DNA of 64,000 bases from Candidatus Woesebacteria bacterium GW2011_GWB1_33_22 (lineage in GTDB: Bacteria; Patescibacteriota; Microgenomatia; UBA8517), in NCBI GenBank assembly GCA_000989765.1, contig LBOW01000001.1, forward strand, positions 47,660 through 111,659, written 5' to 3'. The translations under genes and the position numbers were made by a program. The notes beneath the pieces were generated by a model that searched no databases, was not told the origin of the DNA, and saw only the letters and a list, made by a program, of their open reading frames with translations. Below are positions 7,641 through 45,835 of the stretch, piece by piece. Numbering within the stretch: the first letter of the stretch is position 1; every line of letters begins with the position of its first letter.

Positions 7641-9167
7641 ATGAACAAAAAAGTAGTTTGGGTAGCAACACCAACATTTTTGTATAGAAATTATTTATAC
7701 CAGAAGATAATTTCTAAATTGCCTAGAAATTATAAGTTTCTATTAATAGGTACAGGTAGTGGATATTTTCTTGAAATTTTACAAAAAAGGGGTTTTCAGG
7801 GTACCGCTATTGACATATCTTCGGAATCTGTTTCTTGTGTTAAAAAAATATTAGATAAAAATAAAATACGAGTAAAAAAGGGAGATATTTTAAATTATCA
7901 AAGTAAAGAGAAATTTGATTTAATATTTTCCTTTGAGGTTATTGAGCATATCAAAGATGATCGCAAAGCCTTAAGTAATATGTACAAACTTTTAAAACCT
8001 GGAGGTAAGTTGATATTTTCGGTACCTGCACATATGAAAGCTTGGGGAAGGATGGATGAAATAGGTGGACATTTTCGTAGATACGAGAAGACAAGTTTAA
8101 CCGAATTGTTGTTAAAATGCGGTTTTAATATTGAAAATTTTTGGTCTTATGGTTTTCCATTTTTAAATGTTATTCAAAGGTTTAGTAAAACAGGCATGTT
8201 TGTTAAAAACTTTAATCATGGTATTTCGGTAAGTGAAAAAACTAAAAAATCTGGAATCAGAACTGATGCTGACCCAAGGTTTTCTTTTTTATATTCAAAC
8301 AAAATTCTATTATACCCATTTTTTTTAATTATGAATTTTTTTATTAAAACTGATTTAGGCTTTGGGTACCTAGTTGTTGCAGACAAAAAAATAAAAACAA
8401 AATTTTCAAACATATTAAAATCAATTCATAATAACTACGCAGTATTTAATGATGAAGTATTGGATGTCAAAGGTAGAACGATGATTGCTAGACAAATTAT
8501 AAAAGTTGTTTCAATATATAGAAATAATACTATTAAACCAAATTTAATGAAAATATTGGATATTGGTTGTTCTTCAGGTATAATTACAGACTATTTGTCT
8601 AAAGAATATGGTCAAGTTGTAGGGATTGATGTTGATAAAGAGTCAATAAATAGTGCCAAAAGTAAATTTAAAAATAAAAATTTAAATTTTTTAGTAAAAG
8701 ACGGTTCCAAAACTGGATTTCCTGATTCCTCCTTTGATGTAATAATTGCTAACCAAATTTATTATTGTTTTTTAAGACCAAAAGATTTTTTTGATGAAGT
8801 TTACCGACTATTAAAACCAGGAGGTATATGTTATTTTGGGGGAAGAAATAAATATACTCTTTGGGATGCACAATATAAACTTCCTCTCCTCTCGGTAATG
8901 CCAAGAAATTTGTCTGACTTTATGGTTAAAACAACGGGGCGTAGCGAAAAGTTTGAGGCTGAATATAGAACATATTGGCAATTGGAAAAAATGTGTAATA
9001 AATTTATAGTTGAAAAAATAACCCCCAAAGCGATTCATAATTATAAAAAATTCGGCTTTGAAAAATTTAAGAAATATAGATTGTTGTTCTCTTCGATACC
9101 TGAATTTGTATGGGCTATATTAGAACCGATACTACCGAATTTTGTTTGGATTTTGAAGAAAATGTAG
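7641..9167 (+). CDS. tandem (dual) class I SAM-dependent methyltransferase fusion
   Basis: Two complete MTase units. First: LLIGTGSGYF...FDLIFSFEVIEHIKDD...LKPGGKLIF. Second: ILDIGCSSGIITDYL...FDVIIANQ...LKPGGICYF. A hydrophobic linker (LLYPFFLIMNFFIKTDLGFGYLVV) lies between them. Confidence 0.75.
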   Translation: MNKKVVWVATPTFLYRNYLYQKIISKLPRNYKFLLIGTGSGYFLEILQKRGFQGTAIDISSESVSCVKKILDKNKIRVKKGDILNYQSKEKFDLIFSFEVIEHIKDDRKALSNMYKLLKPGGKLIFSVPAHMKAWGRMDEIGGHFRRYEKTSLTELLLKCGFNIENFWSYGFPFLNVIQRFSKTGMFVKNFNHGISVSEKTKKSGIRTDADPRFSFLYSNKILLYPFFLIMNFFIKTDLGFGYLVVADKKIKTKFSNILKSIHNNYAVFNDEVLDVKGRTMIARQIIKVVSIYRNNTIKPNLMKILDIGCSSGIITDYLSKEYGQVVGIDVDKESINSAKSKFKNKNLNFLVKDGSKTGFPDSSFDVIIANQIYYCFLRPKDFFDEVYRLLKPGGICYFGGRNKYTLWDAQYKLPLLSVMPRNLSDFMVKTTGRSEKFEAEYRTYWQLEKMCNKFIVEKITPKAIHNYKKFGFEKFKKYRLLFSSIPEFVWAILEPILPNFVWILKKM

Positions 9168-14632: not shown

Positions 14633-15178
14633 ATGAAAGTAGTCAAATTGATAACTATATTGGTGGCAGTGACTTTCTGTCTTTTTACATTAAATCTAAA
14701 GGCTCTAGCAGTATCTTCTGACCCAAGTCCTAATCCGACCAAGGTTGATTCATTCGAGCTATTTTGGCCAATTGTAGCAGGAAAAGTTCAAGGTGATTCG
14801 ATGTATCGTTTAAAAATTTTTAAGGAAAATATGCGTGGATATTTAATTTTGAGTAGTTTGAAAAAAGCAGAGTATCTTACTTTTATTTCGAGTAAACGAC
14901 TAGTAGAATTTGAAGAGCTCGCTTTATCGAGAAAAAATTTTGAGAACGCTACTAAGACTTTAGAAGTATATAGATCTACTCAAAAAAAGATTTTTTCTTA
15001 TCTTGATAAAGCAAAAAGCGAGGGTGTTATGATCACAAATACTCAAAGTATTATAGAGGATACACTCAATAGGCAGCTTACATTACTAAATTATATTCTT
15101 CTTGGTGTGGATAATTCACAAAAGACAGGTGTAGAGGGTGCTATATCTTTTATAAATTCAGAGTTAGAAAAGTTTTAA
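14633..15178 (+). CDS. secreted/N-terminally anchored protein, DUF5667-like
   Basis: Signal/anchor MKVVKLITILVAVTFCLF. The MYRLKIFKENMRGYLILSSLKKAEYLTFISSKRLVEFEEL region resembles the DUF5667 pattern common in CPR genomes. Confidence 0.45.
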   Translation: MKVVKLITILVAVTFCLFTLNLKALAVSSDPSPNPTKVDSFELFWPIVAGKVQGDSMYRLKIFKENMRGYLILSSLKKAEYLTFISSKRLVEFEELALSRKNFENATKTLEVYRSTQKKIFSYLDKAKSEGVMITNTQSIIEDTLNRQLTLLNYILLGVDNSQKTGVEGAISFINSELEKF

Positions 15179-16170: not shown

Positions 16171-16668
16171 ATGTTAAAGCAGTTTATTATTGTTTTTTTC
16201 ACAGTTATTTTTCTAATCTTTATTTCAAGCACGAAACCCTTTTTAGTCATAGGTTCTGATGAATATATATTTGATACTCAAATCACGCAAAAAACAACTT
16301 TAATAAATAAGATTTTTGAGAAGACAGGTTTTTTAATTCGGTTGAATAAATCTAGTAAGGCAAAATATTGGAGAAAACTTGTGGATAAAAGGTTGGCCGA
16401 ATTCAAACTTGTTGTCGAGAATGACGATAAGGGAGCTTTCGAGGAAACTTCATCAAGATATTCAACCTATGTTGCCAATTATTCAGATTATCTTTTAAAT
16501 TCAAATTTAGTTAATGAAAAAAGTATCACCAAGCAGCAATTTGATAAACATCAAGAAATCTTAAACACATTTAAGGATAAATATGAATACAATTCTGCTT
16601 GGTGGATTTTAGTTATGCACCCAATTAATACGTTGGAAATCTTCAAATTAAAGGTCGAAAAATTATGA
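16171..16668 (+). CDS. N-terminally anchored protein, DUF5667-like (second copy)
   Basis: N-terminal hydrophobic helix. FLIRLNKSSKAKYWRKLVDKRLAEFKLVVEND resembles the same pattern as 14633-15178. Confidence 0.4.
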   Translation: MLKQFIIVFFTVIFLIFISSTKPFLVIGSDEYIFDTQITQKTTLINKIFEKTGFLIRLNKSSKAKYWRKLVDKRLAEFKLVVENDDKGAFEETSSRYSTYVANYSDYLLNSNLVNEKSITKQQFDKHQEILNTFKDKYEYNSAWWILVMHPINTLEIFKLKVEKL

Positions 16669-17693
16669 CAAAAGGAAACGAGCCAAAAATTTCGATAATC
16701 ACACCAACATTAAATTCTTCGAGAACAATAAAATTATATTTTGAAGCAATAAAAATGCAAAAATATAATGGTAGTGTAGAAGTGTTAATTATAGATGGTG
16801 GAAGTATGGATGACACACTAGATTTCGCTAAAAAGTATAATAATAAAATATTTTTTAATAAATTAAAAACAGCAGAATCTGGTAAGGCCTTGGGTGTTAA
16901 AAAATCTACTGGTTCAATATGTGCTTTTATTGATTCAGATAATATTCTACCAGATAAAGACTGGTTAAGAAAAATGATTTTGCCGTTTATGATAGATTCT
17001 CAAATTATGGCAACTGAGCCGATAAAGTTCACATATCGCGTAAAGGACCATTGGCTTACTAGATATTTTGCATTAATAGGTATGGGAGATCCTATAAATT
17101 TATTTATTGGTAATTATGATAAATATAGTTACATTACAAATAAGTGGACGAACCTAAAACTTAAGGAAGAAAACAAAAATGGGTATAGAAAAGTAAAGCT
17201 TGAAAATAGAATACCCACAATTGGAGCAAATGGGTTTCTAATAAAAAAAGAAGCACTGACTAGCTACGAACTTGGTGACTATTTGTTTGATGTCGATTTA
17301 CTTGAAACGTTAACCAAAAGAAGCCCAATATTCATTTCTAAGGTTGATGTTGGGATTGTTCATCTTTTTTCAGGTGATATAAGCACATTTATTAGAAAAC
17401 AACGTAGAAGGATTAGAGATTATCTTTATCATTATTATTATAAAAATTCTAAAAAAACTGAAAATTCGCTTGAATCTCCATTCATTTTTTGGGGTATTGT
17501 AAAATTCATCGCATCTTGTATATCCGTATTTCCCTTAATATTTCAGTTATTTGTGGGTTTTACAAGAAAACGAGATGTTGTTTGGTTGTTTCATATACCT
17601 GCTTGTTATATTACTCTTTTTGTTTATACTTACGAAACAGTTAGATCGCTATTTATCAAAGAAGAGTATAGTCGAGTGAATTGGAAACAATGA
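16665..17693 (+). CDS. glycosyltransferase family 2 with C-terminal TM helices
   Basis: KISIITPTLNSSRTI...LIIDGGSMDDT...FIDSDN; C-terminal hydrophobic helices. Confidence 0.75.
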   Translation: MTKGNEPKISIITPTLNSSRTIKLYFEAIKMQKYNGSVEVLIIDGGSMDDTLDFAKKYNNKIFFNKLKTAESGKALGVKKSTGSICAFIDSDNILPDKDWLRKMILPFMIDSQIMATEPIKFTYRVKDHWLTRYFALIGMGDPINLFIGNYDKYSYITNKWTNLKLKEENKNGYRKVKLENRIPTIGANGFLIKKEALTSYELGDYLFDVDLLETLTKRSPIFISKVDVGIVHLFSGDISTFIRKQRRRIRDYLYHYYYKNSKKTENSLESPFIFWGIVKFIASCISVFPLIFQLFVGFTRKRDVVWLFHIPACYITLFVYTYETVRSLFIKEEYSRVNWKQ

Positions 17694-18736
17694 GAAAACT
17701 AAAACCCAAAGTATCAATTATTATAACCAATTATAACGGAGGTCAAATTCTTTTAGATTGTATCGAATCCGTCAAAAAAATTGATTACCCAAATTTCGAG
17801 GTTATTTTAATAGATGATAGGTCAAAGGATGATAGTTTTGAGATGGCAACAAAAAATAAAGGTAAATTAAAATTAATATCATCTCGTAACAAAGTTAATC
17901 TTGGATTTGCAGGTGCAAATAATGCTGGCTTAGAGTTGGCAACTGGTGATTATATATTACTTCTTAATAATGATACAAAGGTTGACAAAAACTTGTTGGC
18001 AAAATTGGTTGATAAATTTGAATCTGATTTGTCAATTGGAGCTGGTCAGTCAAAGATACGTTTTATGGATAAACCGGAATATTTAGACAATGCTGGTTCA
18101 TTTTTAACACGAACTGGTTTTTTGGTGCATTGGGGATTTGGGAGTCGAGATTCTAAAGAATTTAATTCAGAAAAAAAAATATTCTCTGCTAAGGGAGCCT
18201 GTTTATTTATAAGACGAAAAGTTATCGATACGGTAGGTCTTTTTGATGCTGACTTTGTAAGTTATATTGAAGAATCTGATTTTTGTTGGAGGGTGTGGTT
18301 GGCTGGATATAAAGTAATCTTTTACCCAGAAACTTATATATTACATAAGGTTGGATTTACTTTTAGTAAACAATTTAATCCAATTACGGTAAATTATAAT
18401 TCGTTTAAAAACAGAATTTTGTCGTTATATAAAAATCTTGAAACCAAAAATCTAATATTAATTTTAATACCACATTTATTTATAATTTTGGGTCTATCTC
18501 TTTATTATTTAATTAAATTACAGTTTGCAAAATCATCGATGATAATTAGAGCTATTTGGTGGAATGTAGTGAATTTTCAAAAATCCCTTAAGAAAAGAAT
18601 GATTGTTCAAAATTTAAGAGTTAAAACAGACGATGAATTATTTAAAACGATTATGAAAAAGTTTGTCTTTAAAGAAATGTTTTCTCATTTTCTTAAGGTA
18701 GAGGCTAATTTTGCCACAAAACGGACTACTAAATGA
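17681..18736 (+). CDS. glycosyltransferase family 2 (WbbL-like rhamnosyl/hexosyltransferase type)
   Basis: KVSIIITNYNGGQILLDCIESV...ILIDDRSKDDS...LLNNDT...; C-terminal TM. Confidence 0.8.
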   Translation: METMRKLKPKVSIIITNYNGGQILLDCIESVKKIDYPNFEVILIDDRSKDDSFEMATKNKGKLKLISSRNKVNLGFAGANNAGLELATGDYILLLNNDTKVDKNLLAKLVDKFESDLSIGAGQSKIRFMDKPEYLDNAGSFLTRTGFLVHWGFGSRDSKEFNSEKKIFSAKGACLFIRRKVIDTVGLFDADFVSYIEESDFCWRVWLAGYKVIFYPETYILHKVGFTFSKQFNPITVNYNSFKNRILSLYKNLETKNLILILIPHLFIILGLSLYYLIKLQFAKSSMIIRAIWWNVVNFQKSLKKRMIVQNLRVKTDDELFKTIMKKFVFKEMFSHFLKVEANFATKRTTK

Positions 18737-19413
18737 TTAAAAATTTCACTTTTAAAGTGCCGATTTCTGGAAGAGTTTTGGCATGTCTAAAACTTTTAAA
18801 TAAATTTAATGTTAATAATAAAACAATACTTGATGTTGGATCGTCTTTTGGTTGGCTAGAGAGAGAGATATTGAAAACTGGTAAATCAAATAAATTGATT
18901 GGTGTTGATCCTAATAAAGATGCAGTTATGTTTGCACAAAAAAAAGTCAAAGGGGCAAGGTTTTTGGTTGGAGACGCCTTAAATTTACCACTTAAGAATA
19001 ATCAGGTAGATGTGGTTACCTTGTTTGATGTAATTGAGCATGTTCCAGAGAACTTTGAGACTAAAGCTCTAAACGAAGTAAATAGGGTTTTAATGAAAGG
19101 TGGATTACTGTTTTTATCTACTCCTAATTCTAAATTTTTGTTAAATATTTTAGACGTAGCATACTTATTTGGTCATAGACACTATAAAAAAGAGCAATTG
19201 ATTAAATATTTAAAGAAATCTAAATTTAAGATCATTGAATCTAGAATTTTAGGGGGATACTGGTTTAGCATATATCTTATTTGGTTATATTTAACTAAAA
19301 GGATTACAGGAAACTTTCTCCCCAGAAATACTTTTTTAGAAAATAGGGAAGCGTCAGAATTTTTAAAAGATAATGGTATTCATACACATTTCATAGTTGC
19401 CAGGAAAATGTGA
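18733..19413 (+). CDS. class I SAM-dependent methyltransferase with C-terminal hydrophobic segment
   Basis: ILDVGSSFGW...VDVVTLFDVIEHVPE...MKGGLLFLSTPN; C-terminal hydrophobic stretch ILGGYWFSIYLIWLYL. Confidence 0.8.
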   Translation: MIKNFTFKVPISGRVLACLKLLNKFNVNNKTILDVGSSFGWLEREILKTGKSNKLIGVDPNKDAVMFAQKKVKGARFLVGDALNLPLKNNQVDVVTLFDVIEHVPENFETKALNEVNRVLMKGGLLFLSTPNSKFLLNILDVAYLFGHRHYKKEQLIKYLKKSKFKIIESRILGGYWFSIYLIWLYLTKRITGNFLPRNTFLENREASEFLKDNGIHTHFIVARKM

Positions 19414-19418
19414 ATAGT

Positions 19419-20345
19419 TTAGTGAAAACCAATTTTTTGGTGAATAAGGTATTCTGGTCTTTTTTTAACCTCATCATAAATACGTGCAAGATATTCACCT
19501 ATAATACCTAAGGTTATAAGTTGAACCCCGCCCATAAAAAGAATTGATGATATTGTTGATGTCCAACCCATAATTCCTAAATTAATAAAAAATTTGAGTA
19601 TAAAAAGTATAACAATTAAAACAAAAGCAAATCCGGAAAAAATAAAGCCTAATATGCTTGCGATTCTTAAAGGGACAAATGAGAAAGAAACAATTCCATC
19701 CATGGCTAGTTTAAAAAGCCTAGAAAAGCTTGCTTCATTTCCAGCATATCTTTTTGACCTTTCGTATATGACACCTGTTTGTTTAAAACCTGTCCAAGCT
19801 CTTAATCCACTAAAGTACTTATTTTTTTCAGGCAAATCAATAATTATGTTTACGATTTTTCTGTCTAATATTGAAAAAGTGCCAGCGTCAATTGGCATTT
19901 TTAAAAAAGATATTTTGTCAAATAGTTTATAAAAAGATTTAAATAAAAATTTTCTTACAAAACTCTCTTTTCTTTTTCGCTTAACACCATAAACTACATC
20001 ATACCCTTGTAATGATTTTTTATACATTTTTTCAATTATATGTGGTGGATCTTGCAAATCGGCATCCATTACGACCACTTTTTCACCTTTTGAATGGACT
20101 AATCCTGCTGTTATCGCGGGCATATGACCGAAATTTCTAGAAAAAGATATAATTTTAATATGATTATCTTTTTTGGAAATTGGGCGCAAAATGTTTAAAG
20201 AATTATCATAACTGCCATCATCAATAAAAATCACTTCATAGCTACTACTTATTTTCTGAAAAGTTGTTTTAATTTTCTCATAAAGAGTTTTGATGTTTCC
20301 TTCCTCATTGTAAATCGGAACAATAACTGATATCTTTAATTTCAT
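19419..20345 (-). CDS. polyprenyl-phosphate glycosyltransferase (GT2, GtrB/ArnC/DPM1-like), second copy
   Basis: MKLKISVIVPIYNEEGNI...VIFIDDGSYDNS...MDADLQDPP plus two C-terminal TM helices. The six-frame ORF extends to 20381; the start at 20345 is more plausible and relieves the overlap with the divergent gene. Confidence 0.8.
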   Translation of the reverse strand: MKLKISVIVPIYNEEGNIKTLYEKIKTTFQKISSSYEVIFIDDGSYDNSLNILRPISKKDNHIKIISFSRNFGHMPAITAGLVHSKGEKVVVMDADLQDPPHIIEKMYKKSLQGYDVVYGVKRKRKESFVRKFLFKSFYKLFDKISFLKMPIDAGTFSILDRKIVNIIIDLPEKNKYFSGLRAWTGFKQTGVIYERSKRYAGNEASFSRLFKLAMDGIVSFSFVPLRIASILGFIFSGFAFVLIVILFILKFFINLGIMGWTSTISSILFMGGVQLITLGIIGEYLARIYDEVKKRPEYLIHQKIGFH

Positions 20346-20363
20346 AAGTGCAATATTACTAGA

Positions 20364-21083
20364 ATGAAGTTGATTAAGCAAATTCTAATATTTTTTATAA
20401 CAATTTTCTTTAAGATTTTCTTTTTAGTGTTTGGCGAGCCTAAAATTTCTAGCAGATTAAGGTCTGTGGTTAATTTATACAAGGGAAATAGTTTTTCCTC
20501 ACTATTTAAAATTATAAGGGTTTGGGATGCTCCTTTTGAAGAAATCGAAAAAGCTGTGCCGGAAAACGGTAAAATTGTTGACTTGGGATGTGGTGATGGA
20601 ATTTTGGGAAATTATTTAGCTTTATCGTCCAAAAAAAGAAGTGTTGTTGGGATAGAATTTAATAAGAAAAGGATAAGTGAGGCAAATAAAGGCATAGTTA
20701 ATACTAAATTTGTCTATGGCGATATTTTAAAAAGTAACTTTACTAAAGCAGATGCAATTCTACTTATACACGTGCTTCATCATCTAGAATCCTATATAGA
20801 TCAAGAAAAGCTTCTAACTAAATGCAAAGAAAGATTAAATAGGGGGGGTAAGATAATTATTGCAGAGATAATAGAAAGACCTTTACATAAGTTTTTATTT
20901 ACAGCCTTAACAGATTTTTTAATTGTACCTATACTGTTTGAAGGAAGGTTAATGAATACAATGATACATTTTAGAACCTTAGACAAATGGAAAACATTAT
21001 TTAAGAGAATGGGATTTAAATATAAATACTCGTTAAATCATCAAAATATGCCTTTCTCACACGCCATTTTTACATTGGAGTAA
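20364..21083 (+). CDS. class I SAM-dependent methyltransferase with N-terminal hydrophobic helix
   Basis: IVDLGCGDGILGNYL...AILLIHVLHHL...LNRGGKIII; N-terminal helix ILIFFITIFFKIFFLVF. Confidence 0.75.
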   Translation: MKLIKQILIFFITIFFKIFFLVFGEPKISSRLRSVVNLYKGNSFSSLFKIIRVWDAPFEEIEKAVPENGKIVDLGCGDGILGNYLALSSKKRSVVGIEFNKKRISEANKGIVNTKFVYGDILKSNFTKADAILLIHVLHHLESYIDQEKLLTKCKERLNRGGKIIIAEIIERPLHKFLFTALTDFLIVPILFEGRLMNTMIHFRTLDKWKTLFKRMGFKYKYSLNHQNMPFSHAIFTLE

Positions 21084-22310
21084 CTAGATAAATTTTAATT
21101 TTTTAGCTGCAAAGAGAGTCATTTTCAGAAGCAACCATCCGTGAGAATAACGATTAATGTTTGTTTGACCATATGTTCTTTCTCGATATCTAGCAGGAAT
21201 TTCGCAAATTTTTAAATTGAGTTTGGTGGCGCCAAATAAAAGATCATAGTCTCCGAAAGGATCAAAATTGCCAAAGTAATTTCTATTATTACAAATTTTA
21301 ATGTAATCTTTACGGAACAAAGCTTTAGTTCCACAAAGCGTGTCATTTACTTTTTGATCTAATAAATAAGTAAAAATAAAACTAAATATTTTATTTCCAA
21401 AAAAGTTTAGCGTTTGCATTGCCTGTTTTTCTAATGGATAAACTAAACGAGAACCATTTGCAAAATCACAATATCCTTTCGAAATAGCTTCATAAAATTT
21501 GATTAAATCCTTAGGATTTACGGTCAGATCGGCATCAAGAATAATTAAGATATCGTTTTTGGCTTTTTTGAATCCTAATCTAACAGCATCTGCCTTACCT
21601 ACCCCCTGTTGTTTATATAATTTTGCTATATTTTTATTTTCTTTATTCTTATTAATCTCCTTCAAAATATAATCATAAGTTTTATCCTTAGATTTTCCTT
21701 CTACAAAAATAATTTCCATATTTTTACCTATTTTAGGTATTTTAGATATCATATTTGGGATATTTCCTTGTTCGTTTCTAGCTGGGATTATTATTGAAAC
21801 AGAATATTCCTTTGTTGGGGGACGCTTTTTAAAAATTATATAAGTAGTTAAACACAGATCGTTTATTAGTGGTAATTTTGCAACCAAAGTATTAATAAAT
21901 GAAGTTACGATGCCAAGATCGATAGGTAATAGAAATCTTTTACCTTTTCTAATAACATCAAATCCCTCTAGATTAAAAACATTTACAATATCATCAGTTG
22001 ATAACCAATTTGAAGGCTTATCTTCCTTTTTTCTTAAACCCAATTTTGTAGCAAAATTTAAAATAGGTTTCCAGAATTGATTAAAATAAATCACCACAAA
22101 CCTTGTATCTTTGTGTGAATATTTTTTTAATTTTTTTATCTCAAACTGTATATCATTCCAATGAGCAATTGTATTTGGAAGAACAATGTAATCATATCTC
22201 TGTGGCTGTATATTTGCGTTTGAATAAGTAAGTACTTTAGAACTCTTAGGTGTTAATTGACTTACTAACTTTTTAATATCTCGTTGGTAAAATTTAGAAA
22301 AAACCTTCAT
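21084..22310 (-). CDS. glycosyltransferase family 2 fused to an N-terminal about 160-aa methyltransferase-like remnant domain
   Basis: C-terminal SVSIIIPARNEQGNI...IFVEGKSKDKT...ILDADLTVNP (GT2). The N-terminal part (YDYIVLPNTIAHWNDIQ...) looks like MTase post-motif-II regions but lacks the GxGxG SAM motif. Confidence 0.7.
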   Translation of the reverse strand: MKVFSKFYQRDIKKLVSQLTPKSSKVLTYSNANIQPQRYDYIVLPNTIAHWNDIQFEIKKLKKYSHKDTRFVVIYFNQFWKPILNFATKLGLRKKEDKPSNWLSTDDIVNVFNLEGFDVIRKGKRFLLPIDLGIVTSFINTLVAKLPLINDLCLTTYIIFKKRPPTKEYSVSIIIPARNEQGNIPNMISKIPKIGKNMEIIFVEGKSKDKTYDYILKEINKNKENKNIAKLYKQQGVGKADAVRLGFKKAKNDILIILDADLTVNPKDLIKFYEAISKGYCDFANGSRLVYPLEKQAMQTLNFFGNKIFSFIFTYLLDQKVNDTLCGTKALFRKDYIKICNNRNYFGNFDPFGDYDLLFGATKLNLKICEIPARYRERTYGQTNINRYSHGWLLLKMTLFAAKKLKFI

Positions 22311-24799: not shown

Positions 24800-25744
24800 A
24801 TGAACAAAGCTTTTTCAAAACTTTTACCAATACTTACGTGTCCTATCTGTCACAAAAATTTAAAGTTAATTAATAAAAATTTCGTGTGTACAGGAAATCA
24901 TAAATTTTCAGTCAAAAGTTATGTTCCAGTTTTTACCAAACTCAATGATTATCTTGAAATTGAATCCAATGCATGGGAGGAAGAATGGAAATCTAAAATT
25001 TCCAAAAAAGCCTTAAAAGCCTATGATATCAACATGGCAGTTTTTAAAAGTTTAGGCTATTGGGAAGAAAGTGGAAATGCTTCAAACCTAATACCAAGTA
25101 AGAAAGATAATATTGTTCTTGACTTAGGTTGCGGTAATGGTGTTTCAACGAGTAAACTCAAAGCAACACAAGCAGTAGGGTTGGATCTTTCTACTAAACA
25201 ATTGGTAAAATCCAAAAATAAATATCCAAACTGTAGTTTTATTGTAGGTGATGCAAGAAAACTTCCCTTTAAAGATTCATCATTTGATATGGTTGTTGCA
25301 ATAAATATGCTTCACCATGTCAAAAATCCTCAAGTTGTGATCAAAGAATGTTATAGAGTTTTAAAAAGTGGGGGACGTCTTTTAACTGTAGATCCGAACC
25401 TTTATAACCCTATTGGATTTATAGGTAGAGGTATGTATAAATTATTAAGACTTAAAAAGATTTTTCCAACATTTCCACAGTTTGCATTAGGAGAAGACGA
25501 ATATCAATTTTCAAAGAAAAATTATTACAATCTTTTTACCAAGTCACCATTTAAAAATTTTACGATTAGGCCACACAGACTTGAAAGAATATTTTTCTTT
25601 GCTAGTATTTTGATACCTAGTTTAATTATGTTTCCTTTCTATAAAAATATTATTTACATACTTAGTCGCATGGGAGAGGGCTTGGTTAAAATTCCACCGC
25701 TGGACAATATTTGTTATTTTTGGAAATGTGAGGCTATTAGGTGA
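24800..25744 (+). CDS. class I SAM methyltransferase with N-terminal Cys4-type zinc ribbon (RlmA-like architecture) and C-terminal hydrophobic segment
   Basis: LTCPICHKNL...CTGNHKF zinc-ribbon; VLDLGCGNGVST...FDMVVAINMLHHV...LKSGGRLL; C-terminal hydrophobic FFFASILIPSLIMFPFY. Confidence 0.75.
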   Translation: MNKAFSKLLPILTCPICHKNLKLINKNFVCTGNHKFSVKSYVPVFTKLNDYLEIESNAWEEEWKSKISKKALKAYDINMAVFKSLGYWEESGNASNLIPSKKDNIVLDLGCGNGVSTSKLKATQAVGLDLSTKQLVKSKNKYPNCSFIVGDARKLPFKDSSFDMVVAINMLHHVKNPQVVIKECYRVLKSGGRLLTVDPNLYNPIGFIGRGMYKLLRLKKIFPTFPQFALGEDEYQFSKKNYYNLFTKSPFKNFTIRPHRLERIFFFASILIPSLIMFPFYKNIIYILSRMGEGLVKIPPLDNICYFWKCEAIR

Positions 25745-28989: not shown

Positions 28990-29440
28990 TGTCAAAATAG
29001 GTAAAAGAGTAAAAATTTATCACAAAAATTTAGTTAATTTGTATGGTTGTAGCATAGGCGAAGATACAAAAATTGGAACTTTTGTTGAAATACAGGCGGG
29101 TGCAAAAATAGGTTCCAGATGTAAAATTTCATCACATACATTTATTTGTGAAGGAGTAACAATAGAAGACGAAGTGTTTATTGGTCATGGTGTTATGTTT
29201 ACAAATGATAAATATCCTAGGGCAGCAATCGGTGGGCATTTAAAGGAAAATGATGATTGGAAGCTCGAAAAAACAGTTATTAAAAAAGGTGCATCTGTTG
29301 GCAGTGGTGCAATTATTCTCCCTGGAATAATAGTAGGGGGAAATGCAATGGTGGGAGCCGGTTGTGTGGTCAGTAAAGATGTTCCATCAAACTCTCTAAT
29401 TTATGGAGTACCTGGTAAAATTGTTAAAAAATTAAAATGA
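28973..29440 (+). CDS. hexapeptide-repeat (left-handed beta-helix) N-acetyltransferase (WbpD/PglD-like)
   Basis: Repeated [LIV]-G-x-x-x-x hexads: IGEDTKIGTFVEIQAGAKIGSRCKISSHTFICEGVTIEDEVFIGHGV. Confidence 0.8.
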   Translation: MTIKNDVKIGKRVKIYHKNLVNLYGCSIGEDTKIGTFVEIQAGAKIGSRCKISSHTFICEGVTIEDEVFIGHGVMFTNDKYPRAAIGGHLKENDDWKLEKTVIKKGASVGSGAIILPGIIVGGNAMVGAGCVVSKDVPSNSLIYGVPGKIVKKLK

Positions 29441-31521
29441 TACCCTTTTTAGATTTAAAAAAGCAACACAACAGCATCAAAAAAGATATTGATCTTGCAG
29501 TTGGTAAAGTTCTAGAAGATTCAAATTTTATTCTTGGTTATGAAGTTGATGAATTTGAAAAAAATTTTGCTAATTATATAGGCGTTAAAAGATGTATTGG
29601 TGTTTCTACAGGAGAGTCGGCAATTTTATTGATATTAAAAGCTTTGGAAGTAGGACCTGGAGACGAAGTTATTACTGTTGCAAATACTTTTATTGCTACG
29701 GTTTTTCCAATAATTACACTTGGAGCAAAACCCGTTCTGATTGATATTGATCCTAAGACCTATCAGATGGATTTAAATATGTTGCAAAAATCAATAACAC
29801 CCAAAACTAAGGTTATACTTCCTGTACATCTGTTTGGTATACCTGCGCCGATAGCGGAAATCTTAAAAATTGCTAAGGAAAAAAATATATTTGTTGTTGA
29901 AGATGCATGTCAGGCTCATGGATCATCAATTGCTGGTAAGATGTGTGGATCTTTTGGCATAGCCTCGGCCTTCTCGTTTTATCCAGGAAAGAATCTTGGA
30001 GCTGCAGGAGATGCTGGCGCAATAACTACAAACGATGAAGATTTAGCAAATAAACTAATTGCAATGAGAAATATAGGCCAATTTGAAAAATATAAACATG
30101 ATTTATTTGGATACAACTTTAGAATGGATACGATCCAGGCCGCTTTTTTAAGTGTAAAGTTAAAACATCTTAACTTATGGAATAAAAAGAGAAGAGAAAT
30201 TGCAAATTACTATAATAAATTATTATCTGATTTACCCGTGGTTTTACCGCCAAAATTAAAAAATGGGTTGGTAGAAAATTATCATCTTTATGTAATAAAA
30301 AGCCAAAAAAGAAATGAGTTGTTGGAATTTCTGAAACAAAATGAAATTTCAACAGGTATTCATTATCCAATACCTCTTCATATGCAAAAATCACTTTCCT
30401 TTTTGTGTTATAATGAAGAAAGTTTTCCTGTAACTAAAAAATATGCAACAGAAATTTTATCACTTCCAATGTTTCCTGATATGACGAAAAACCAAGTGAA
30501 AGAAGTATCTGACAAAATTCATGAATTTTATCGAAACCTTGATAGATTGGGAAAAATTGTAATTACGGGTGGTGCTGGATTTATAGGTTCTTCAGTTGCT
30601 GATTATTTATTAGAACATTTTGCTGAAAAAATAGACAAAATTGTAGTTTTAGATAATTTTGTCAGAGGTAAAAAGGAAAATTTAATTAAGGCTCTAAAAA
30701 ATAAGAAAGTGGAACTAATTGAGGGTGATATTCGAGATAAAGAGTTGGTTGATAAGTTGATTAAAGGTGCAAATTATGTAATTCATGAGGCAGCTATCAA
30801 AAATATTTTATGCGATGAAGATCCACGGCTTTCCTTAGAAGTATTAGTTAATGGAACATTTAATGTTATGGAAGCCTGTGTTAAGCATAAAGTCAGAAAA
30901 TTGGTATTTAATTCATCAGCTTCAGTTTATGGACAACCTTTAAAAATACCAATGCAGGAAACAGATAATTATAATAATGAAGCATTTTATGGTGCAGGAA
31001 AAATTGCCAACGAACAAATGGCAAAAGCTTTTAATAAAATGTACGGCCTAAATTATGTTTGCCTACGACCTTTCAATATCTATGGACCCAGAATGGATAT
31101 ATCAGGCATATATACTGAAGTTTTTATTAGATGGTTGGACTCAATAGATAATGGAAAGGCGCCTGTTATCTTTGGAGATGGCACAAACACCTTAGACTTT
31201 GTTTACATCGAAGATGTAGTTAGGGCAACTATCACGGCATTATTAAGTGATATAAAACAAGGTTTTTATAATGTCGGATCTGGGGATGAAGTTAGCTTAA
31301 ACAAACTAGTAGAAGTACTTCTTAAATGTAATAAATCTGATCTTAAAGTAGAACACATTCAACAGATTAGAAAATCTAACTATGTAACTAGAAGAAAAGC
31401 TGATATAGTAAATGCAAAGAAAGATTTAGGGTTTATTGCCACCACCTCATTAGAAACTGGTGTTAAAAAACTTATTGAATGGAGGAAGAAAACAAAGAAA
31501 AATGAAAATACCGTTAATTAA
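29437..31521 (+). CDS. bifunctional fusion: DegT-family sugar aminotransferase (N) + NAD-dependent SDR epimerase (C, GalE/WbpP-like)
   Basis: N-domain has SFYPGKNLGAAGDAGAI (PLP Lys). C-domain starts KIVITGGAGFIGSS with a YGAGK catalytic motif and NSSASVYG (epimerase-like, no DEVYG dehydratase motif). Single uninterrupted 694-aa ORF. Confidence 0.75.
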   Translation: MIPFLDLKKQHNSIKKDIDLAVGKVLEDSNFILGYEVDEFEKNFANYIGVKRCIGVSTGESAILLILKALEVGPGDEVITVANTFIATVFPIITLGAKPVLIDIDPKTYQMDLNMLQKSITPKTKVILPVHLFGIPAPIAEILKIAKEKNIFVVEDACQAHGSSIAGKMCGSFGIASAFSFYPGKNLGAAGDAGAITTNDEDLANKLIAMRNIGQFEKYKHDLFGYNFRMDTIQAAFLSVKLKHLNLWNKKRREIANYYNKLLSDLPVVLPPKLKNGLVENYHLYVIKSQKRNELLEFLKQNEISTGIHYPIPLHMQKSLSFLCYNEESFPVTKKYATEILSLPMFPDMTKNQVKEVSDKIHEFYRNLDRLGKIVITGGAGFIGSSVADYLLEHFAEKIDKIVVLDNFVRGKKENLIKALKNKKVELIEGDIRDKELVDKLIKGANYVIHEAAIKNILCDEDPRLSLEVLVNGTFNVMEACVKHKVRKLVFNSSASVYGQPLKIPMQETDNYNNEAFYGAGKIANEQMAKAFNKMYGLNYVCLRPFNIYGPRMDISGIYTEVFIRWLDSIDNGKAPVIFGDGTNTLDFVYIEDVVRATITALLSDIKQGFYNVGSGDEVSLNKLVEVLLKCNKSDLKVEHIQQIRKSNYVTRRKADIVNAKKDLGFIATTSLETGVKKLIEWRKKTKKNENTVN

Positions 31522-34736: not shown

Positions 34737-35093
34737 ATGAATATCTATACAATTGGGATTGTCTTAGTTGGAATGATTATCCTTCTTATTACTGCTGAGG
34801 TAATGAGTCATTATTTTAAAATTCACTCAGATAAATTTTACGTTATTTTTCATTTTGCAGGTGGTGCATTATCTTTCCTTTTATTTTTAAATTTATTTAA
34901 TAATAAACTTCTTGCTTTTTTCTTAGTTTTAGTAATTGGTATACTTTGGGAAATACATGAGTGGATATTATGGAAATTATATATTAAAACAAAATTATAT
35001 AAACCAAAGAGTAAGGATACAATTTGTGATTTGGTAATGGATATTTCCGGAGCGTTAATATTTTATGTTATTGAAATTTTACACATATTTTAA
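34737..35093 (+). CDS. small 3-4 TM membrane protein (GtrA-like size/topology)
   Basis: 118 aa with 3-4 hydrophobic helices, in a locus with GtrB-like enzymes. No motif-level proof. Confidence 0.4.
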   Translation: MNIYTIGIVLVGMIILLITAEVMSHYFKIHSDKFYVIFHFAGGALSFLLFLNLFNNKLLAFFLVLVIGILWEIHEWILWKLYIKTKLYKPKSKDTICDLVMDISGALIFYVIEILHIF

Positions 35094-37788
35094 AAACCTT
35101 TTAAAAAACCATTTTTGGGTTTTGTTAATTCTTGTTGTTTTTATCTCTTATGGCCAGATGCTTTGGATGCAACCGTGGGAAGATGATAACGCCTTGTTTG
35201 TTAAACTGGCAAGCATAGAGGATAGGGTTGGCTTTTTTGGTAAAGGCCCCCTAGGAGAAGGAGTTTATAGATTTGCAGCTGTCCCGTTTATATTAATATA
35301 TAAAATTTTCGGTACGTTTATACCAGCTTACTTTGCATTGCTTTTAATTCTTTATGTTTTAGCTACCTTAACAGTGTATAAAGTACTATCTAAAATTATT
35401 GGCGAGACTGGAGGGAGAGTTGTTGGTTTTATTTATGCTTGTGGTTATATTACCTCTGACAGTTTTTGGAGAATGGCAAATAGTGCAACCACAAGCATAA
35501 GTATAATACTTATTAGTTTGTTTACATTATTTTGTTGGCAATATTATAAGCAACAAAAAATTAAGTATTATTTATTGTCACTTTTTTTCTTCCTGATAGC
35601 TACAATAATTGCTGTTTCAAGAACTCACTATCTTGTTGCTGTGGCAATAATTTTTGAATTTACCCTTTTTACCTTTAGAAATTTCCCCAAAAATGTCATA
35701 AAGTTGGTTTTACGCCTAATTCCATTTTTGTATATTTTTTACAATTTAGTTTTATCTTCCAGTGATTCAAGGACCGATGGAGTAGGAAATTATATTATTT
35801 CAATCCTAAAAGGAAAATTGTATTTGACCTATGGATTTTTTTCATCAATTTCAAATTTATTTATTCCGGATTATTTAATTAATTTTATTTTTGATATTCA
35901 AAATAAGTTGACAGTGTTTTTACAAGCCAAAATTCCTATTGCTTATTTATTATTATTTGGTGTTTTTACAATTTTAATATTGTTATCTTTTAAAGGTTTA
36001 AAAAACAAAAAGTATCTTACAATTTTATTTTATTTTATACTTTTAATATGGTTCTTTGTTTCCAAAAAAGTTTTCTTGGAATCATCCTTAGGATTAGGAG
36101 AAAAAGGTATTTTTGTTGGAATACTTGGTGGAGTTATCCTAATTTTGTTAAGTGCATTTTTTATTATTCTTCGTAAAAATAGACAGATATTTTTATTTTT
36201 TATAAGCTGGCTTGTTATTAATTTGTTGGCTTATACTTCTTACTTTCCTACGGTTACCTATGAAACAATTAACCGTTATTTAGCTCACTCCTTTTTTTCT
36301 CTAACATGCGTTTTAGGTATATTATATATTTCACTACCAGACAAAAGTAAAATAAATTTTTTGGTCAAATTAATAATAATTTTATTTGGCATTGTTAATT
36401 TAATAAACGCTGTAATTTATCAAAATAAAATTCTTTATACAAGAAGTTTTCCAGTTAAAAGTTTTTATCAACAACTGTCTATTTTGCTACCTGAAATTAA
36501 GAAAGACGATGTTTTGTATTTTGATGTTTCAAACGATTCACAACGCTTATTTCGTGATGCAATTTCAGCGGCGATGATACCAGACACTGGATCGTTTGGT
36601 TGGCGTTATCAAATATATAGATATGATTTTAGTTTAGAAACAGATTTTTCAAGTTTATATAAAAGAATAACAGAGGAAAAAGTAAAAATAGATAACATCC
36701 ATGCTTTTTGGTATTCCAAAGGTATTCTTACTGATATATCCAAAAATGTGCAAGATTATTTCTTAAATAAAAATTCATATTATTATTCTCAATATAGTTT
36801 AGAAAAAACAAGTGAAGCGATTATAAACAGAAACAAGGATAAAACATTGTGGTTTCAGCCAGAACTTATTGCCGACATCAAATCTCCAATTGAAAGTTAT
36901 GCACCCATTGAATGTGGTATCACTTTTGTGGCCAATCCACTTAAGACTAATAAATTACTTTTTCCACTATATTGGGAATTATCTAATGACAAAACAAAAA
37001 ATGTATTTAATGACCCAGTACAAAAGAAACTTGCCTTACTATATAAGAAAGATATGGATAATTTTGTTAAAAATTCCATTTTTAGTACTAGTAGCCAATG
37101 GTCTGATCGAGTAACTGAAAATTTATATGACAATGATATTGGTACTGTATGGCAATCTGATAGAGTACTCTGGCAAGATAAAAGAGAATATCTAGAAGTT
37201 TTGTTACCTACTGTTCAAAACATAAATAGAATAGTTTGGACACCACCTTCATATCAAGCTAGCGTACCTACAAATTATGAAATTGAAATATCACTTGATG
37301 GAAAGAGTTGGAGAAAAATTAAAACAATAACTAATAAAGAAATAACCAGTCAGATTCAACAAGAGGTAAAATTTGAACCAATAACAGCAAAATACGTAAA
37401 GATGATAATAACTGAAACCCTAGGAGGCGATTCCCCGATGATATCCGAGTTTCGTGTAATACCTAGTAGCTTATCAACGCTTGATTTAAAAAGTGTAGAC
37501 ACATATCTTGAAAGGCCATTTATATTTATTGAAAATGAACAAATTTTTAATAACACGTTAACAAGTTTTGGACAAACAGGCGTTGCTCAATTGTATTACT
37601 TAGCAAATAAAGATAATGTTTGGATTAATACAAGTAAATTAAATATTGGAATTATTTATGATGGAAAAGCTCATTACTATAAAGTTAATTTTCCTGCAGG
37701 TGGGACTAGAATTGAAAATATCAAAGTTTCAAACTTTGCAGTTCCTGGTACAATAACTTTATATAACATCGAATGCAAAACAAACTGA
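35065..37788 (+). CDS. large polytopic membrane protein with C-terminal F5/8 type C (discoidin) domain; candidate GT-C glycosyltransferase (tandem paralog A)
   Basis: N-terminal motif QPWEDDNALFVKL, about 13 TM helices. C-terminal SQWSDRVTENLYDNDIGTVWQSD...YLEVLL...AKYVKMIITET...ISEFRV matches the discoidin/F5_F8_type_C pattern. Confidence 0.7.
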   Translation: MLLKFYTYFKNLLKNHFWVLLILVVFISYGQMLWMQPWEDDNALFVKLASIEDRVGFFGKGPLGEGVYRFAAVPFILIYKIFGTFIPAYFALLLILYVLATLTVYKVLSKIIGETGGRVVGFIYACGYITSDSFWRMANSATTSISIILISLFTLFCWQYYKQQKIKYYLLSLFFFLIATIIAVSRTHYLVAVAIIFEFTLFTFRNFPKNVIKLVLRLIPFLYIFYNLVLSSSDSRTDGVGNYIISILKGKLYLTYGFFSSISNLFIPDYLINFIFDIQNKLTVFLQAKIPIAYLLLFGVFTILILLSFKGLKNKKYLTILFYFILLIWFFVSKKVFLESSLGLGEKGIFVGILGGVILILLSAFFIILRKNRQIFLFFISWLVINLLAYTSYFPTVTYETINRYLAHSFFSLTCVLGILYISLPDKSKINFLVKLIIILFGIVNLINAVIYQNKILYTRSFPVKSFYQQLSILLPEIKKDDVLYFDVSNDSQRLFRDAISAAMIPDTGSFGWRYQIYRYDFSLETDFSSLYKRITEEKVKIDNIHAFWYSKGILTDISKNVQDYFLNKNSYYYSQYSLEKTSEAIINRNKDKTLWFQPELIADIKSPIESYAPIECGITFVANPLKTNKLLFPLYWELSNDKTKNVFNDPVQKKLALLYKKDMDNFVKNSIFSTSSQWSDRVTENLYDNDIGTVWQSDRVLWQDKREYLEVLLPTVQNINRIVWTPPSYQASVPTNYEIEISLDGKSWRKIKTITNKEITSQIQQEVKFEPITAKYVKMIITETLGGDSPMISEFRVIPSSLSTLDLKSVDTYLERPFIFIENEQIFNNTLTSFGQTGVAQLYYLANKDNVWINTSKLNIGIIYDGKAHYYKVNFPAGGTRIENIKVSNFAVPGTITLYNIECKTN

Positions 37789-42556: not shown

Positions 42557-43387
42557 ATGGTAACATATTTTGTGCTTAACAATATTTCTAATCGTTTTCT
42601 AGGATCGGTTTTGAGTGAAGCTGATACAAAAGTTATGAACGCTTATGGTTGGGGTGTTCAGTTTCATAAAAATAGCTCCATAAATTTATTTGTTAAGTTT
42701 TTTGGTGTTCCCCACCTTGGTGCGCGCATGAGAAATCGGATCCTAGAAAATATAATTAACAAAAGAAACCATAAAAATTCTACACTTTTTGATGCTGGGT
42801 GTGGAATAGGCCTAACTAGTATGTATTTATCAAATAAATTTGAAAAAATTTATGCAGTCGATGTTGAAGAACAAAAAATTAAAGTAGCTAAAATGATTGC
42901 TAAGAATAATCACATTAATAATATAGAATTTAGAAAGGTTGATGTTTTGAAGGACAAAATAGCTTCGAAAACTTTCGATTTTGTGATTTGTTTTGAAGTG
43001 CTAGAACATGTAAATAACGAAGAGGAATTTATTTATAAACTCTCAAAATTGGTTAAGAAAAATGGAGTTATGATTCTATCATTTCCTTCGAAGACACTGC
43101 TTTCCCGTATGGCACAGAAATCACTCGATCACCATAAATCAGGCTATTCATCAGATGAGATTAATAAAATAGCTAAAAAATTTAAACTTAAAGTTGTTGA
43201 AGAACAATCTTTTGGTAAGAGCCTCTTGGGAAAATTAGTCGTCGGTTGCGATTTTATTTTTAGAATAACTTTTACACCATTAGCAAGTTTATTTTTCCCA
43301 GTTTTTTATCCATTATTGATACTGGATTATTATTTGCCAAAATTTGGAATTCCAAGAGGATATATATTAGTAATACACAAAAACTAA
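42557..43387 (+). CDS. class I SAM-dependent methyltransferase with C-terminal hydrophobic segment
   Basis: LFDAGCGIGLTSMYL...FDFVICFEVLEHV...KKNGVMILSFP; C-terminal FFPVFYPLLILDYYL. Confidence 0.75.
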   Translation: MVTYFVLNNISNRFLGSVLSEADTKVMNAYGWGVQFHKNSSINLFVKFFGVPHLGARMRNRILENIINKRNHKNSTLFDAGCGIGLTSMYLSNKFEKIYAVDVEEQKIKVAKMIAKNNHINNIEFRKVDVLKDKIASKTFDFVICFEVLEHVNNEEEFIYKLSKLVKKNGVMILSFPSKTLLSRMAQKSLDHHKSGYSSDEINKIAKKFKLKVVEEQSFGKSLLGKLVVGCDFIFRITFTPLASLFFPVFYPLLILDYYLPKFGIPRGYILVIHKN

Positions 43388-45113: not shown

Positions 45114-45835
45114 AATATCAAACCAAGAATCTTCAGCCACACAGCAAAATCGGTTTATCTTTTATAAGTTTATTAAAACATTATTATCATGTTAGTAATT
45201 TAGATAATTTGAGACAATCTTTGAAAGATGACTTAATCGCCACCATATTTATGGGGTCTGGGAGTGGTATATTTGGATCGTTCATAAGGGGTATGTATTT
45301 TAAGTTATTTTTAAACTATAAACTTCCATCTATGATTGGAAATCGCTTTCGTATTATAAATTCGTCAATGGTTAAGGTTGGTAAGAACTTGTGGATTAAA
45401 GATGATGTTACGATATTTGCGGGGGACAAGATGACAATTGGCGATGGCTGTGTTTTGTGTGATAGATCAAGTATTTGGTCCAGTAAAGACGGTTTAAAAA
45501 TTGGAGATGGATTTTCATTAGGTATAGGTGGATATATCTGTGGAACTGAAGGAAGGATAGCTATAGGTAATAAAGTAATTATGGCTGATAATGTACGTTT
45601 ATACAGTTGGAATCATAGTTTATATTCCAGTTTAAAAACGTTTTCAGAGAATGAAATTTCTCATCGAGGTATTACGATTGGTAACAATTGCTGGCTTGGA
45701 TCTGGATGTGTAATATTAGATGGTGTGAATTTAGGTGATAACTGTGTTGTAGGTGCGGGAGCTGTAGTTACAAAGTCATTTCCTAAAAATTCGTTAATCG
45801 CGGGGGTCCCAGCAAAAGTTGTTAAAACAATATGA
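45101..45835 (+). CDS. hexapeptide-repeat O-acetyltransferase (WcaF/maltose O-acetyltransferase-like)
   Basis: C-terminal GITIGNNCWLGSGCVILDGVNLGDNCVVGAGAVV LbH repeats. Confidence 0.75.
   Translation: MEKMKYQTKNLQPHSKIGLSFISLLKHYYHVSNLDNLRQSLKDDLIATIFMGSGSGIFGSFIRGMYFKLFLNYKLPSMIGNRFRIINSSMVKVGKNLWIKDDVTIFAGDKMTIGDGCVLCDRSSIWSSKDGLKIGDGFSLGIGGYICGTEGRIAIGNKVIMADNVRLYSWNHSLYSSLKTFSENEISHRGITIGNNCWLGSGCVILDGVNLGDNCVVGAGAVVTKSFPKNSLIAGVPAKVVKTI

Follow-up and report, generated by a model that had tools for sequence, protein, structure and literature searches.

What are the hydrophobic stretches that recur outside the catalytic core of the methyltransferases in a bacterial glycan locus, and do they tie these enzymes to the membrane? 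The question is raised by a 64-kb stretch of DNA from Candidatus Woesebacteria bacterium GW2011_GWB1_33_22 (contig LBOW01000001.1, positions 47,660 to 111,659; all 64,000 nucleotides are called the window here), in which a preliminary description had reported S-adenosylmethionine (SAM) methyltransferases (MTases) with hydrophobic anchors. We examined these MTases, named here by their first coordinate, and we conclude that the stretches are real, aromatic-rich and more interfacial than membrane-spanning; as bilayer-spanning anchors they can be dismissed, with the N-terminal helix of 20364 as one possible exception. The reading that we favor, with a probability of roughly one in two, is that the stretches are interfacial cap helices that would let the MTases act at the membrane on polyprenyl-phosphate-linked sugars before flipping and transfer by GT-C glycosyltransferases.

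Class I SAM MTases were found with Pfam in six genes; as 7641 is a fusion of two domains in tandem, the intact catalytic domains number seven:

7641 to 9167, forward strand: tandem double class I SAM MTase, 508 amino acids, matched by Methyltransf_11/25/23 in two stretches of the protein; by alignment, the hydrophobic stretches are at nt 8307-8342 (LLYPFFLIMNFF, the β6-β7 insert of the N-domain) and nt 9105-9155 (FVWAILEPILPNFVWIL, the end of the C-domain)
18733 to 19413, forward strand: class I SAM MTase of the "GHRHY" family, 226 amino acids; the helix of residues 176-192 is at nt 19258-19308
20364 to 21083, forward strand: COMT-like class I O-MTase, 239 amino acids, with Pfam matches that include Methyltransf_2; hydrophobic helices at residues 2-23 (nt 20367-20432) and residues 174-193 (nt 20883-20942)
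24800 to 25744, forward strand: class I SAM MTase (Pfam), 314 amino acids, with an N-terminal Zn-ribbon-like motif; by alignment, the stretch RIFFFASILIPSLIMFPFY is at residues 263-281 (nt 25586-25642), before the terminal strand
42557 to 43387, forward strand: class I SAM MTase (Pfam), 276 amino acids; stretch at residues 238-262 (nt 43268-43342)
60270 to 60953, forward strand: class I SAM MTase (Pfam, Methyltransf_23), 227 amino acids; stretch LIDILTIPYALIATIF at residues 199-214 (nt 60864-60911), the weakest of the cases

Every one of these genes passes the gathering cut-off for Methyltransf_11, 23, 25 or 31, and 7641 does so twice. SAM motif I, sought as a glycine-rich D/E-x-G-x-G-x-G after β1, reads DVGSSFG in 18733, DLGCGDG in 20364, DLGCGNG in 24800, DAGCGIG in 42557, DIGCSNG in 60270, and IGTGSG and DIGCSSG in the two domains of 7641, and the seven-stranded sheet ends in the antiparallel β7 that marks class I. 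Both 7641 domains are complete: motif I and a hydrophobic β6-β7 insert are present in each. A six-frame scan of the window with a hidden Markov model (HMM) built from these MTase domains revealed no seventh MTase gene, and a lenient-threshold Pfam scan revealed no further MTase among the unassigned open reading frames of the window. The "seven MTases" of the preliminary description are therefore right as a count of intact domains, or if a degenerate domain is added to the six genes, but not as a number of genes. No glycan-specific NCBIfam model reaches its cut-off for any of the MTases, and the best matches are the generic BioC, UbiG or UbiE; the only score above a cut-off is that of UbiG for the tandem-domain 7641 (105.0 vs 102.95), an identity that we rejected in view of the two-domain build of the protein and the higher score of BioC. 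20364 has an invariant HVLHHL segment after β4, which, with its match to the COMT-type family Methyltransf_2, is consistent with O-methylation, the catalytic role of the segment being inferred. We consider the MTases to be ordinary class I enzymes of uncharacterised subfamilies.

To place the stretches in the fold, we used AlphaFold2 models of 18733 and 20364 built on family alignments, in which the predicted local distance difference test score (pLDDT) was 92.9 (18733) and 94.2 (20364), the predicted template modelling score was 0.90, and pLDDT across the hydrophobic helices was 88-93. The peptides quoted in the preliminary description are present in the genes to which it assigned them, at residues 172-187 (18733), 7-23 (20364), 246-260 (42557) and 199-214 (60270). 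In the 18733 model, the stretch YWFSIYLIWLYLTKRIT is a helix (residues 176-192) between β6 (165-173) and β7 (218-225), and a polar helix (200-209) lies between it and the terminal strand. In the 20364 model, residues 2-23 form an additional helix at the N terminus, residues 174-193 form another hydrophobic helix after β5 (158-169), and the protein ends with strands β6 and β7. For the other domains, a MAFFT alignment of eight domains, anchored by FDxVxxxxVxEH at β4, by LKxGGxLxxxxP at β5 and by the region of β6, puts the stretches of 7641 (both domains), 24800, 42557, 60270 and the MTase-like N-domain of the fusion protein 21084 at the β6-β7 insert position of 18733, with a short terminal strand of the xYxVVAxK type after each insert. 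If the stretches were buried core β strands of the MTase fold, they would not be extra segments at all; this explanation is ruled out, since AlphaFold2 shows helices and the alignment puts the paralogues in the insert. Thus, the claim of extra helix-like segments was borne out, by helices outside the sheet in the two models and by a common insert in the alignment. The claim that they are terminal was borne out in part: in five cases the stretch comes within 3-39 residues of the C terminus but precedes the last β strand, and one of the 7641 stretches is in the middle of the protein. In the standard class I topology, β6 and β7 are connected on that side of the sheet where the substrate binds.

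We judged transmembrane (TM) grade by hydropathy, on the Kyte-Doolittle scale and a Hessa-type translocon scale. The N terminus of 20364 (residues 6-24) has a Kyte-Doolittle 19-residue maximum (KD19) of 2.39 and is the only MTase segment at the level of the true TM segments of the locus (2.0-3.4); KD19 is 1.74-1.77 in 24800, 42557 and 60270, 1.48 in 7641 and 1.15 in 18733, and reaches up to 1.86 in the soluble enzymes of the locus. Similarly, on the Hessa-type scale 20364 (-0.3) is the sole MTase in the TM range of the locus (-6.2 to +1.9), and the others (+4.3 to +5.9, with 7641 at +5.9) score like the soluble enzymes (+2.6 to +12). These values bear on the literal meaning of "anchor", in which the MTases would be true bitopic membrane proteins, each held by a TM helix. 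We consider this very unlikely: it agrees with the N-terminal segment of 20364, which falls within the range of real TM segments on both scales, but none of the other five has a TM-grade segment of at least ~19 residues (KD 1.15-1.77; Hessa +4.3 to +5.9), their stretches contain Pro, Asp or Lys, and the core β strand that comes after must return to the domain. Moreover, the corresponding helix of the 20364 homologues has on average 3.8 charged residues and is absent from more distant homologues. Thus, "hydrophobic anchor" may be apt for the N-terminal helix of 20364, which is of bilayer-spanning grade and for which alone a true TM anchor is plausible, but not for the others, which are 12-19 residues long, rich in aromatics and Pro, and conserved in sequence.

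The Wimley-White scales, which reward aromatics, gave a different result. Octanol values of 19-mers were -8.0 to -15.6 in the MTases (-12.8 in 7641), compared to +0.4 to -12.0 in a set of 20 cytoplasmic enzymes encoded elsewhere in the locus (p = 3e-5, Mann-Whitney), and interface values of 18-mers were -3.7 to -9.7, with five of the six MTases at -6.8 to -9.7, which at most hints at an exposed, lipid-binding surface. On these scales five of six MTases overlap the membrane proteins, the exception being 60270 (-8.0 octanol, -3.7 interface). In contrast, Kyte-Doolittle values did not differentiate the MTases from the same cytoplasmic enzymes (p = 0.11). Within-protein shuffling yielded p values of 0.017 (20364), 0.031 (24800), 0.027 (42557), 0.083 (7641), 0.089 (18733) and 0.22 (60270). 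The 60270 stretch, which is within the range of the soluble enzymes both by its octanol value and by shuffling, does not make a convincing case.

The weak shuffle values of 7641, 18733 and 60270, together with the KD19 of 1.86 attained by soluble enzymes, could mean that the stretches are chance runs of F, I, L and Y in a genome of 29% GC, with no specific function. We regard this as very unlikely, and we rejected a pure artefact of composition as largely refuted by conservation and shared structural position: the stretches occupy one structural position in seven paralogous domains, they are conserved and partly invariant in homologues of 30-60% identity, and the Wimley-White values differ between the groups.

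Hydrophobic character is kept in the homologues of 18733, 20364, 42557 and 24800. In the 18733 family (39 sequences, 43-88% identity), the GHRHY motif is invariant, as are G174, W184 and Y186 in the helix region, and Y181 and K189 are nearly so. The helix is kept, with the consensus GGFxExxxxxLLYxFKWxF, throughout the taxa of the family (one genome per species), which include the candidate phyla radiation (CPR), DPANN archaea, Thermoplasmatota, Halobacteriota, Actinomycetota, Eremiobacterota, Chloroflexota and Brachyspira; a Wimley-White interfacial value of about -10 is reached only in the clade of the window itself (Microgenomates). The 42557 family has a near-invariant FFPxFYPLxxLDxxLPxFGxPRG, with four prolines and an invariant Asp, and its invariant residues are F247, P252, D257, L260, P261 and P266. 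The 24800 insert is hydrophobic in four close representatives, found in a search of 1.84 billion proteins, but not in the 32%-identical P0258. In the 20364 family, the sequence of the N-terminal helix is conserved (MKxIKQFLxxLIxxFFKxYF), with a mean of 3.8 charged residues per 22 and a mean hydrophobic moment of 0.38, and the charges are spaced at about i, i+4 and i+8 (by eye on the listed sequences); approximately 10 more distant homologues are without it. From these sequences, the N-terminal helix of the homologues looks amphipathic. In the second hydrophobic helix of 20364 (174-193), D184 is invariant and K176 near-invariant. Since this conservation is sequence-specific, as that of a generic anchor would not be, it fits a functional cap beside the active site better than an anchor of that kind.

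The same conservation raises the possibility that the MTases are soluble cytoplasmic enzymes, free of membrane contact, whose helices form a substrate cap or lid, or a dimer interface, and which act on nucleotide sugars, soluble oligosaccharides or a hydrophobic small molecule. The strong conservation of the helices, with invariant polar and Pro residues, argues for this, as do the 18733 helix, which is shared by its whole family and in most members has a conserved Glu and moderate hydrophobicity, KD and Hessa scores like those of soluble enzymes, and the pLDDT of the helices, which suggests defined packing on the domain. A sequence search of the PDB with the 18733 family profile aligned only the Rossmann core (approximately residues 20-138), with hits that include UbiG. 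Given that residues 1-12 of 18733 are coil and that its β6-β7 insert has 44 residues, an alignment of 196 residues must, by these counts, take in some of the insert, which would to that extent have a structural equivalent in soluble enzymes of known crystal structure. On the other side, Wimley-White values equal those of membrane segments in five of six MTases, the aromatic content of the 18733 helix is specifically raised in the Microgenomates clade, the N-terminal helix of 20364 is TM-grade, and the MTases are tightly coupled to membrane-anchored family 2 glycosyltransferases (GT2s) and polyprenyl-phosphate sugar synthases. We consider membrane-free enzymes of this sort possible, though on balance doubtful.

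The coupling is seen with two genes that flank 18733:

17681 to 18736, forward strand: GT2 (Pfam), 351 amino acids, with one C-terminal TM segment (residues 253-280)
19419 to 20381, reverse strand: ArnC/GtrB/PgfS-like GT2 (NCBIfam, polyprenyl-phosphate sugar synthase type), with two C-terminal TM helices (residues 229-298) and a probable true ATG at 20345

The stop codon of 17681 overlaps the start of 18733 (ATGA), and 19419 sits between MTases 18733 and 20364. NCBIfam alignments of 19419 to PgfS (1e-77) and to ArnC (1e-53) cover the full length but do not reach the equivalog cut-offs; 15179, which has two TM helices, is likewise full-length to ArnC and PgfS, with E values that together with those of 19419 range from 1e-53 to 1e-77 and are below the cut-offs. 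Because of the ArnC/PgfS-like synthases 19419 and 15179, the membrane-anchored GT2s and the GT-C proteins nearby, the context fits lipid-linked chemistry. A membrane-proximal role of the MTases seems likely, and the methylation of lipid-linked intermediates, as the preliminary description had suggested, is a reasonable inference; the heavily methylated glycan that it predicted is plausible as the product.

In the favored interpretation, the stretches would be aromatic interfacial cap helices added to a Rossmann-like core, which would dock the MTases on the cytoplasmic face of the membrane and also contribute to the acceptor site. The MTases would then O-methylate sugars already on polyprenyl phosphate or diphosphate, supplied by the neighboring membrane-bound GT2s, namely the ArnC/PgfS-like 19419 and 15179 and also 17681, whose translation is coupled to that of 18733, and methylation would precede both flipping and the transfer step, for which the locus has many GT-C enzymes. 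In its favor are the helices outside the sheet and their shared β6-β7 position in the paralogues, the restriction of sequence matches with solved homologues to the Rossmann core, the Wimley-White values, the hydrophobic character kept in homologues, and the gene neighborhood. Several observations weigh against this interpretation. The KD and Hessa-type scales fail to set five of six MTases apart from the soluble enzymes of the locus, and a proteome of 29% GC is rich in F, I, L and Y, such that the shuffle p values are just 0.02-0.09 (0.22 for 60270). The 18733 helix is family-wide, usually with a conserved Glu and only moderately hydrophobic, with Wimley-White interfacial values of -2 to -5 outside Microgenomates. 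The invariant Asp, Pro, Trp and Tyr residues would fit a catalytic or substrate cap as well as they would fit membrane docking. Finally, NCBIfam provides no usable specific name that would point to a substrate of the MTases.

The pairing of GT2 and MTase genes extends well beyond this genome. A homologue of the 17681-type GT2 directly adjoins the 18733 homologue, upstream or downstream, in ~24 of 81-82 loci (read from start coordinates), and the adjacency spans CPR, DPANN and Thermoplasmatota. Among the loci that hold the family, 18733-type MTases occur in archaea (DPANN, Thermoplasmatota, Halobacteriota and others) in L012, L013, L015, L017-L019, L021-L023, L025-L027, L051 and L073; the GT2 gene is directly downstream of the MTase gene in the Thermoplasmatota loci L018, L019, L021 and L023, and is within a few kb or absent in the other archaeal loci. 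Thus, the 18733-type MTase and the GT2 may be an uncharacterised conserved pair common to bacteria and archaea. Relatives of the window repeat the order GT-C, ArnC-like, GT2, MTase, ArnC-like, MTase, followed by more genes of the MTase and GT2 types and by another GT-C, and relatives with this shared order have at least six MTases within 20 kb. The ATGs of 19419 (20345, reverse strand) and MTase 20364 (forward strand) diverge across a gap of 18 bp (22 bp in L001), and thus both promoters must lie within neighboring coding sequences. The GT2-MTase module is also present, as in CPR loci, in records labeled "uncultured Gammaproteobacteria" (L004, L007-L010 and L050), where the ArnC-like GT2 is 60-69% identical to the window proteins in L004, L007-L009 and L050 and only weakly similar in L010; the taxonomic labels of these metagenome-assembled genomes are probably wrong.

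Immediately downstream of 20364, a GT2 carries the additional domain that the preliminary description had called a degenerate MTase-like N-domain:

21084 to 22310, reverse strand: MTase-like N-domain (residues ~1-165) and an AglJ/dolichyl-phosphate-hexose-transferase-like GT2 (Pfam GT2 at 172-337; NCBIfam AglJ, 1.7e-27); insert stretch LGIVTSFINTLVAKLPLI at nt 21864-21917

With the whole protein as query, Pfam matched no MTase family at an E value of 0.01 or lower. With the N-domain alone, the top three Pfam matches were all MTase families, the best being Methyltransf_23 (E 0.0023, 18 bits, below cut-off), which aligned over profile positions 80-162, its C-terminal half. Comparison by hhalign of the N-domain with the 18733 and 42557 family profiles aligned the β4-β5-β6 register without significance (E 0.27 and 0.056). 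In alignment, the N-domain is without β1-β3 and without the glycine-rich motif I, and what is present resembles the C-terminal half of an MTase (β4-β7 and the insert). The fusion is kept in relatives with 49-57% identity (L001 14486-15601; L002 11503-12618). Thus, the fusion to a GT2 and the MTase families among the top matches agree with the description, but the likeness is weak and below threshold, and a degenerate MTase is a reasonable, weakly supported identification. If the domain is indeed derived from an MTase, it could not bind SAM in the usual way, since motif I is absent.

The window as a whole is crowded with genes for glycan assembly. Pfam assigns three GT4 and eight GT2 proteins, and there are also DegT-type aminotransferases, epimerases/dehydratases, acyltransferases, a carbamoyltransferase, an AsnB-type amidotransferase and two Wzx-like flippases. 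At least 10 large, GT-C-like multi-TM proteins are present, several of which match PMT_2/PMT (GT-C), with PMT_2 or PMT matches at 12550, 25741, 40446 and 57922; small proteins of 3-4 TM segments without a Pfam match (34737-35093 and 50456-50839) are candidate flippases. GC content is ~29% across the window, and homologues of the focal proteins carry names of Candidatus Woesebacteria, Microgenomates and the Patescibacteria group, which marks the source as a CPR bacterium of the Microgenomates type. Several further genes of the window were recorded:

29437 to 31521, forward strand: fusion of a DegT-type aminotransferase and an NAD-dependent epimerase/dehydratase, 694 amino acids
32636 to 33760, forward strand: fusion of a hexapeptide acyltransferase and a GT2, 374 amino acids
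35065 to 37788 and 37773 to 40442, forward strand: adjacent paralogues of ~900 amino acids, each with at least 12 TM segments and, at the C terminus, a carbohydrate-binding domain of the F5/8 type C (discoidin) family, which look like GT-C-type transferases with a lectin module
43392 to 45113, forward strand: NodU/CmcH-type carbamoyltransferase inside the glycan locus, which hints at carbamoylated sugars and coincides with the sole GC bump in the window (0.349 vs ~0.29, nt 44000-46000)
14633 to 15178 and 16171 to 16668, forward strand: small proteins with an N-terminal TM segment and DUF5667, interleaved with GT2 genes

Comparison with known systems provides precedents for parts of this arrangement. 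The report on UbiG (PMC4796655) describes an insertion beside the SAM pocket that mediates binding to membrane lipids. UbiG (E. coli; Coq3 in yeast) is like the window MTases in being a class I SAM MTase with an insertion outside the Rossmann core near the cofactor and substrate pocket, and it is among their PDB and NCBIfam matches. It differs in that its insertion is at β4/α10, whereas those of the window MTases are at β6-β7 or the N terminus, in that its substrate is a polyprenyl quinone rather than a glycan, in that all scores except that of 7641 are below the curated cut-off, and in that the window genes lie in a glycan locus. CPR organisms are not known to make quinones. A second comparison is with PmtA, which binds the membrane through an amphipathic helix. 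PmtA is a phospholipid MTase that binds and remodels membranes (PMC5312082). An extra hydrophobic element outside the catalytic core, as in UbiG and PmtA, is present in 18733 (helix 176-192) and in 20364 (helices 2-23 and 174-193).

Two MTases of glycan pathways are closer in setting, and the window MTases share with them a glycan-assembly locus that has polyprenyl-phosphate-using enzymes. WbdD of E. coli O8/O9a is a class I MTase whose gene belongs to a glycan locus and whose substrate, the polyprenol-linked O-antigen, is methylated at the cytoplasmic membrane (PMC3482155). In contrast to the window MTases, WbdD uses a non-catalytic C-terminal coiled-coil region to recruit the mannosyltransferase WbdA to the membrane, with no cap helix within the MTase fold described for this, and it terminates chains in a pathway that is coupled to an ABC transporter; we detected no orthology between it and the window MTases. 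AglP of Haloferax volcanii methylates a hexuronic acid, and in 2010 Magidovich and colleagues reportedly found that it acts on a dolichol-phosphate-linked glycan. It is a SAM MTase of the Agl N-glycosylation pathway and thus, like the proposed role of the window MTases, takes part in the assembly of a glycan borne on a lipid carrier (PMC3871713), a likeness of role. The setting is also alike in that archaeal relatives of the 18733 family are next to GT2 genes.

The GtrA/GtrB/GT-C systems and the Arn pathway (ArnC, ArnD, ArnE/F and ArnT) resemble the window in its synthases 19419 and 15179 and its many GT-C proteins, and differ in that the candidate flippases of the window are small 3-4 TM proteins and Wzx-like proteins. 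In the Arn pathway, ArnD acts before flipping, on a sugar already attached to its lipid. In three-component systems, GT-C enzymes draw on polyprenyl-phosphate donors, and with DprE1/E2 a sugar is modified on the lipid before GT-C transfer (PMC11127046). One could imagine, in Microgenomates-type CPR bacteria, a "four-component" variant of the Gtr and Arn systems, in which membrane-docked MTases would methylate polyprenyl-phosphate monosaccharides from the adjacent ArnC/GtrB-like synthases, these would be flipped and added outside the cell by GT-C enzymes to deliver O-methyl sugars, and the MTase half of 21084, fused to a DPM1-like GT2, would be a non-catalytic module for docking or substrate handover. 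We consider this specific scheme unlikely; our literature search returned no precedent for methylating a polyprenyl-phosphate monosaccharide donor, and on CPR glycan methylation or lipid-linked sugar MTases it returned general precedents only. Nor do we know of a precedent for such a donor being methylated.

The mycofactocin pair MftF and MftM is alike in that a GT2 and a class I MTase together build a methylated oligosaccharide, but the NCBIfam matches are weak and far below cut-offs (17681 to MftF, 8e-18; 18733 to MftM, 2.4e-10), the window is without mycofactocin genes, and the acceptor differs. If cap helices do dock the MTases, methylation would take place on lipid-linked intermediates in uncultured, host-dependent CPR bacteria, and the GT2-MTase pair, conserved in CPR, DPANN and Thermoplasmatota alike, would be a module that different lineages can reuse to make O-methylated surface glycans, which would help in predicting the surface chemistry of organisms that cannot be cultured. 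The present result mainly corrects an over-reading, in that ordinary class I MTases carry these stretches as conserved elements of a cap and not as terminal anchors. Thus, set beside these known systems, the MTases of this locus are a fairly ordinary variant of known glycan-modifying enzymes.

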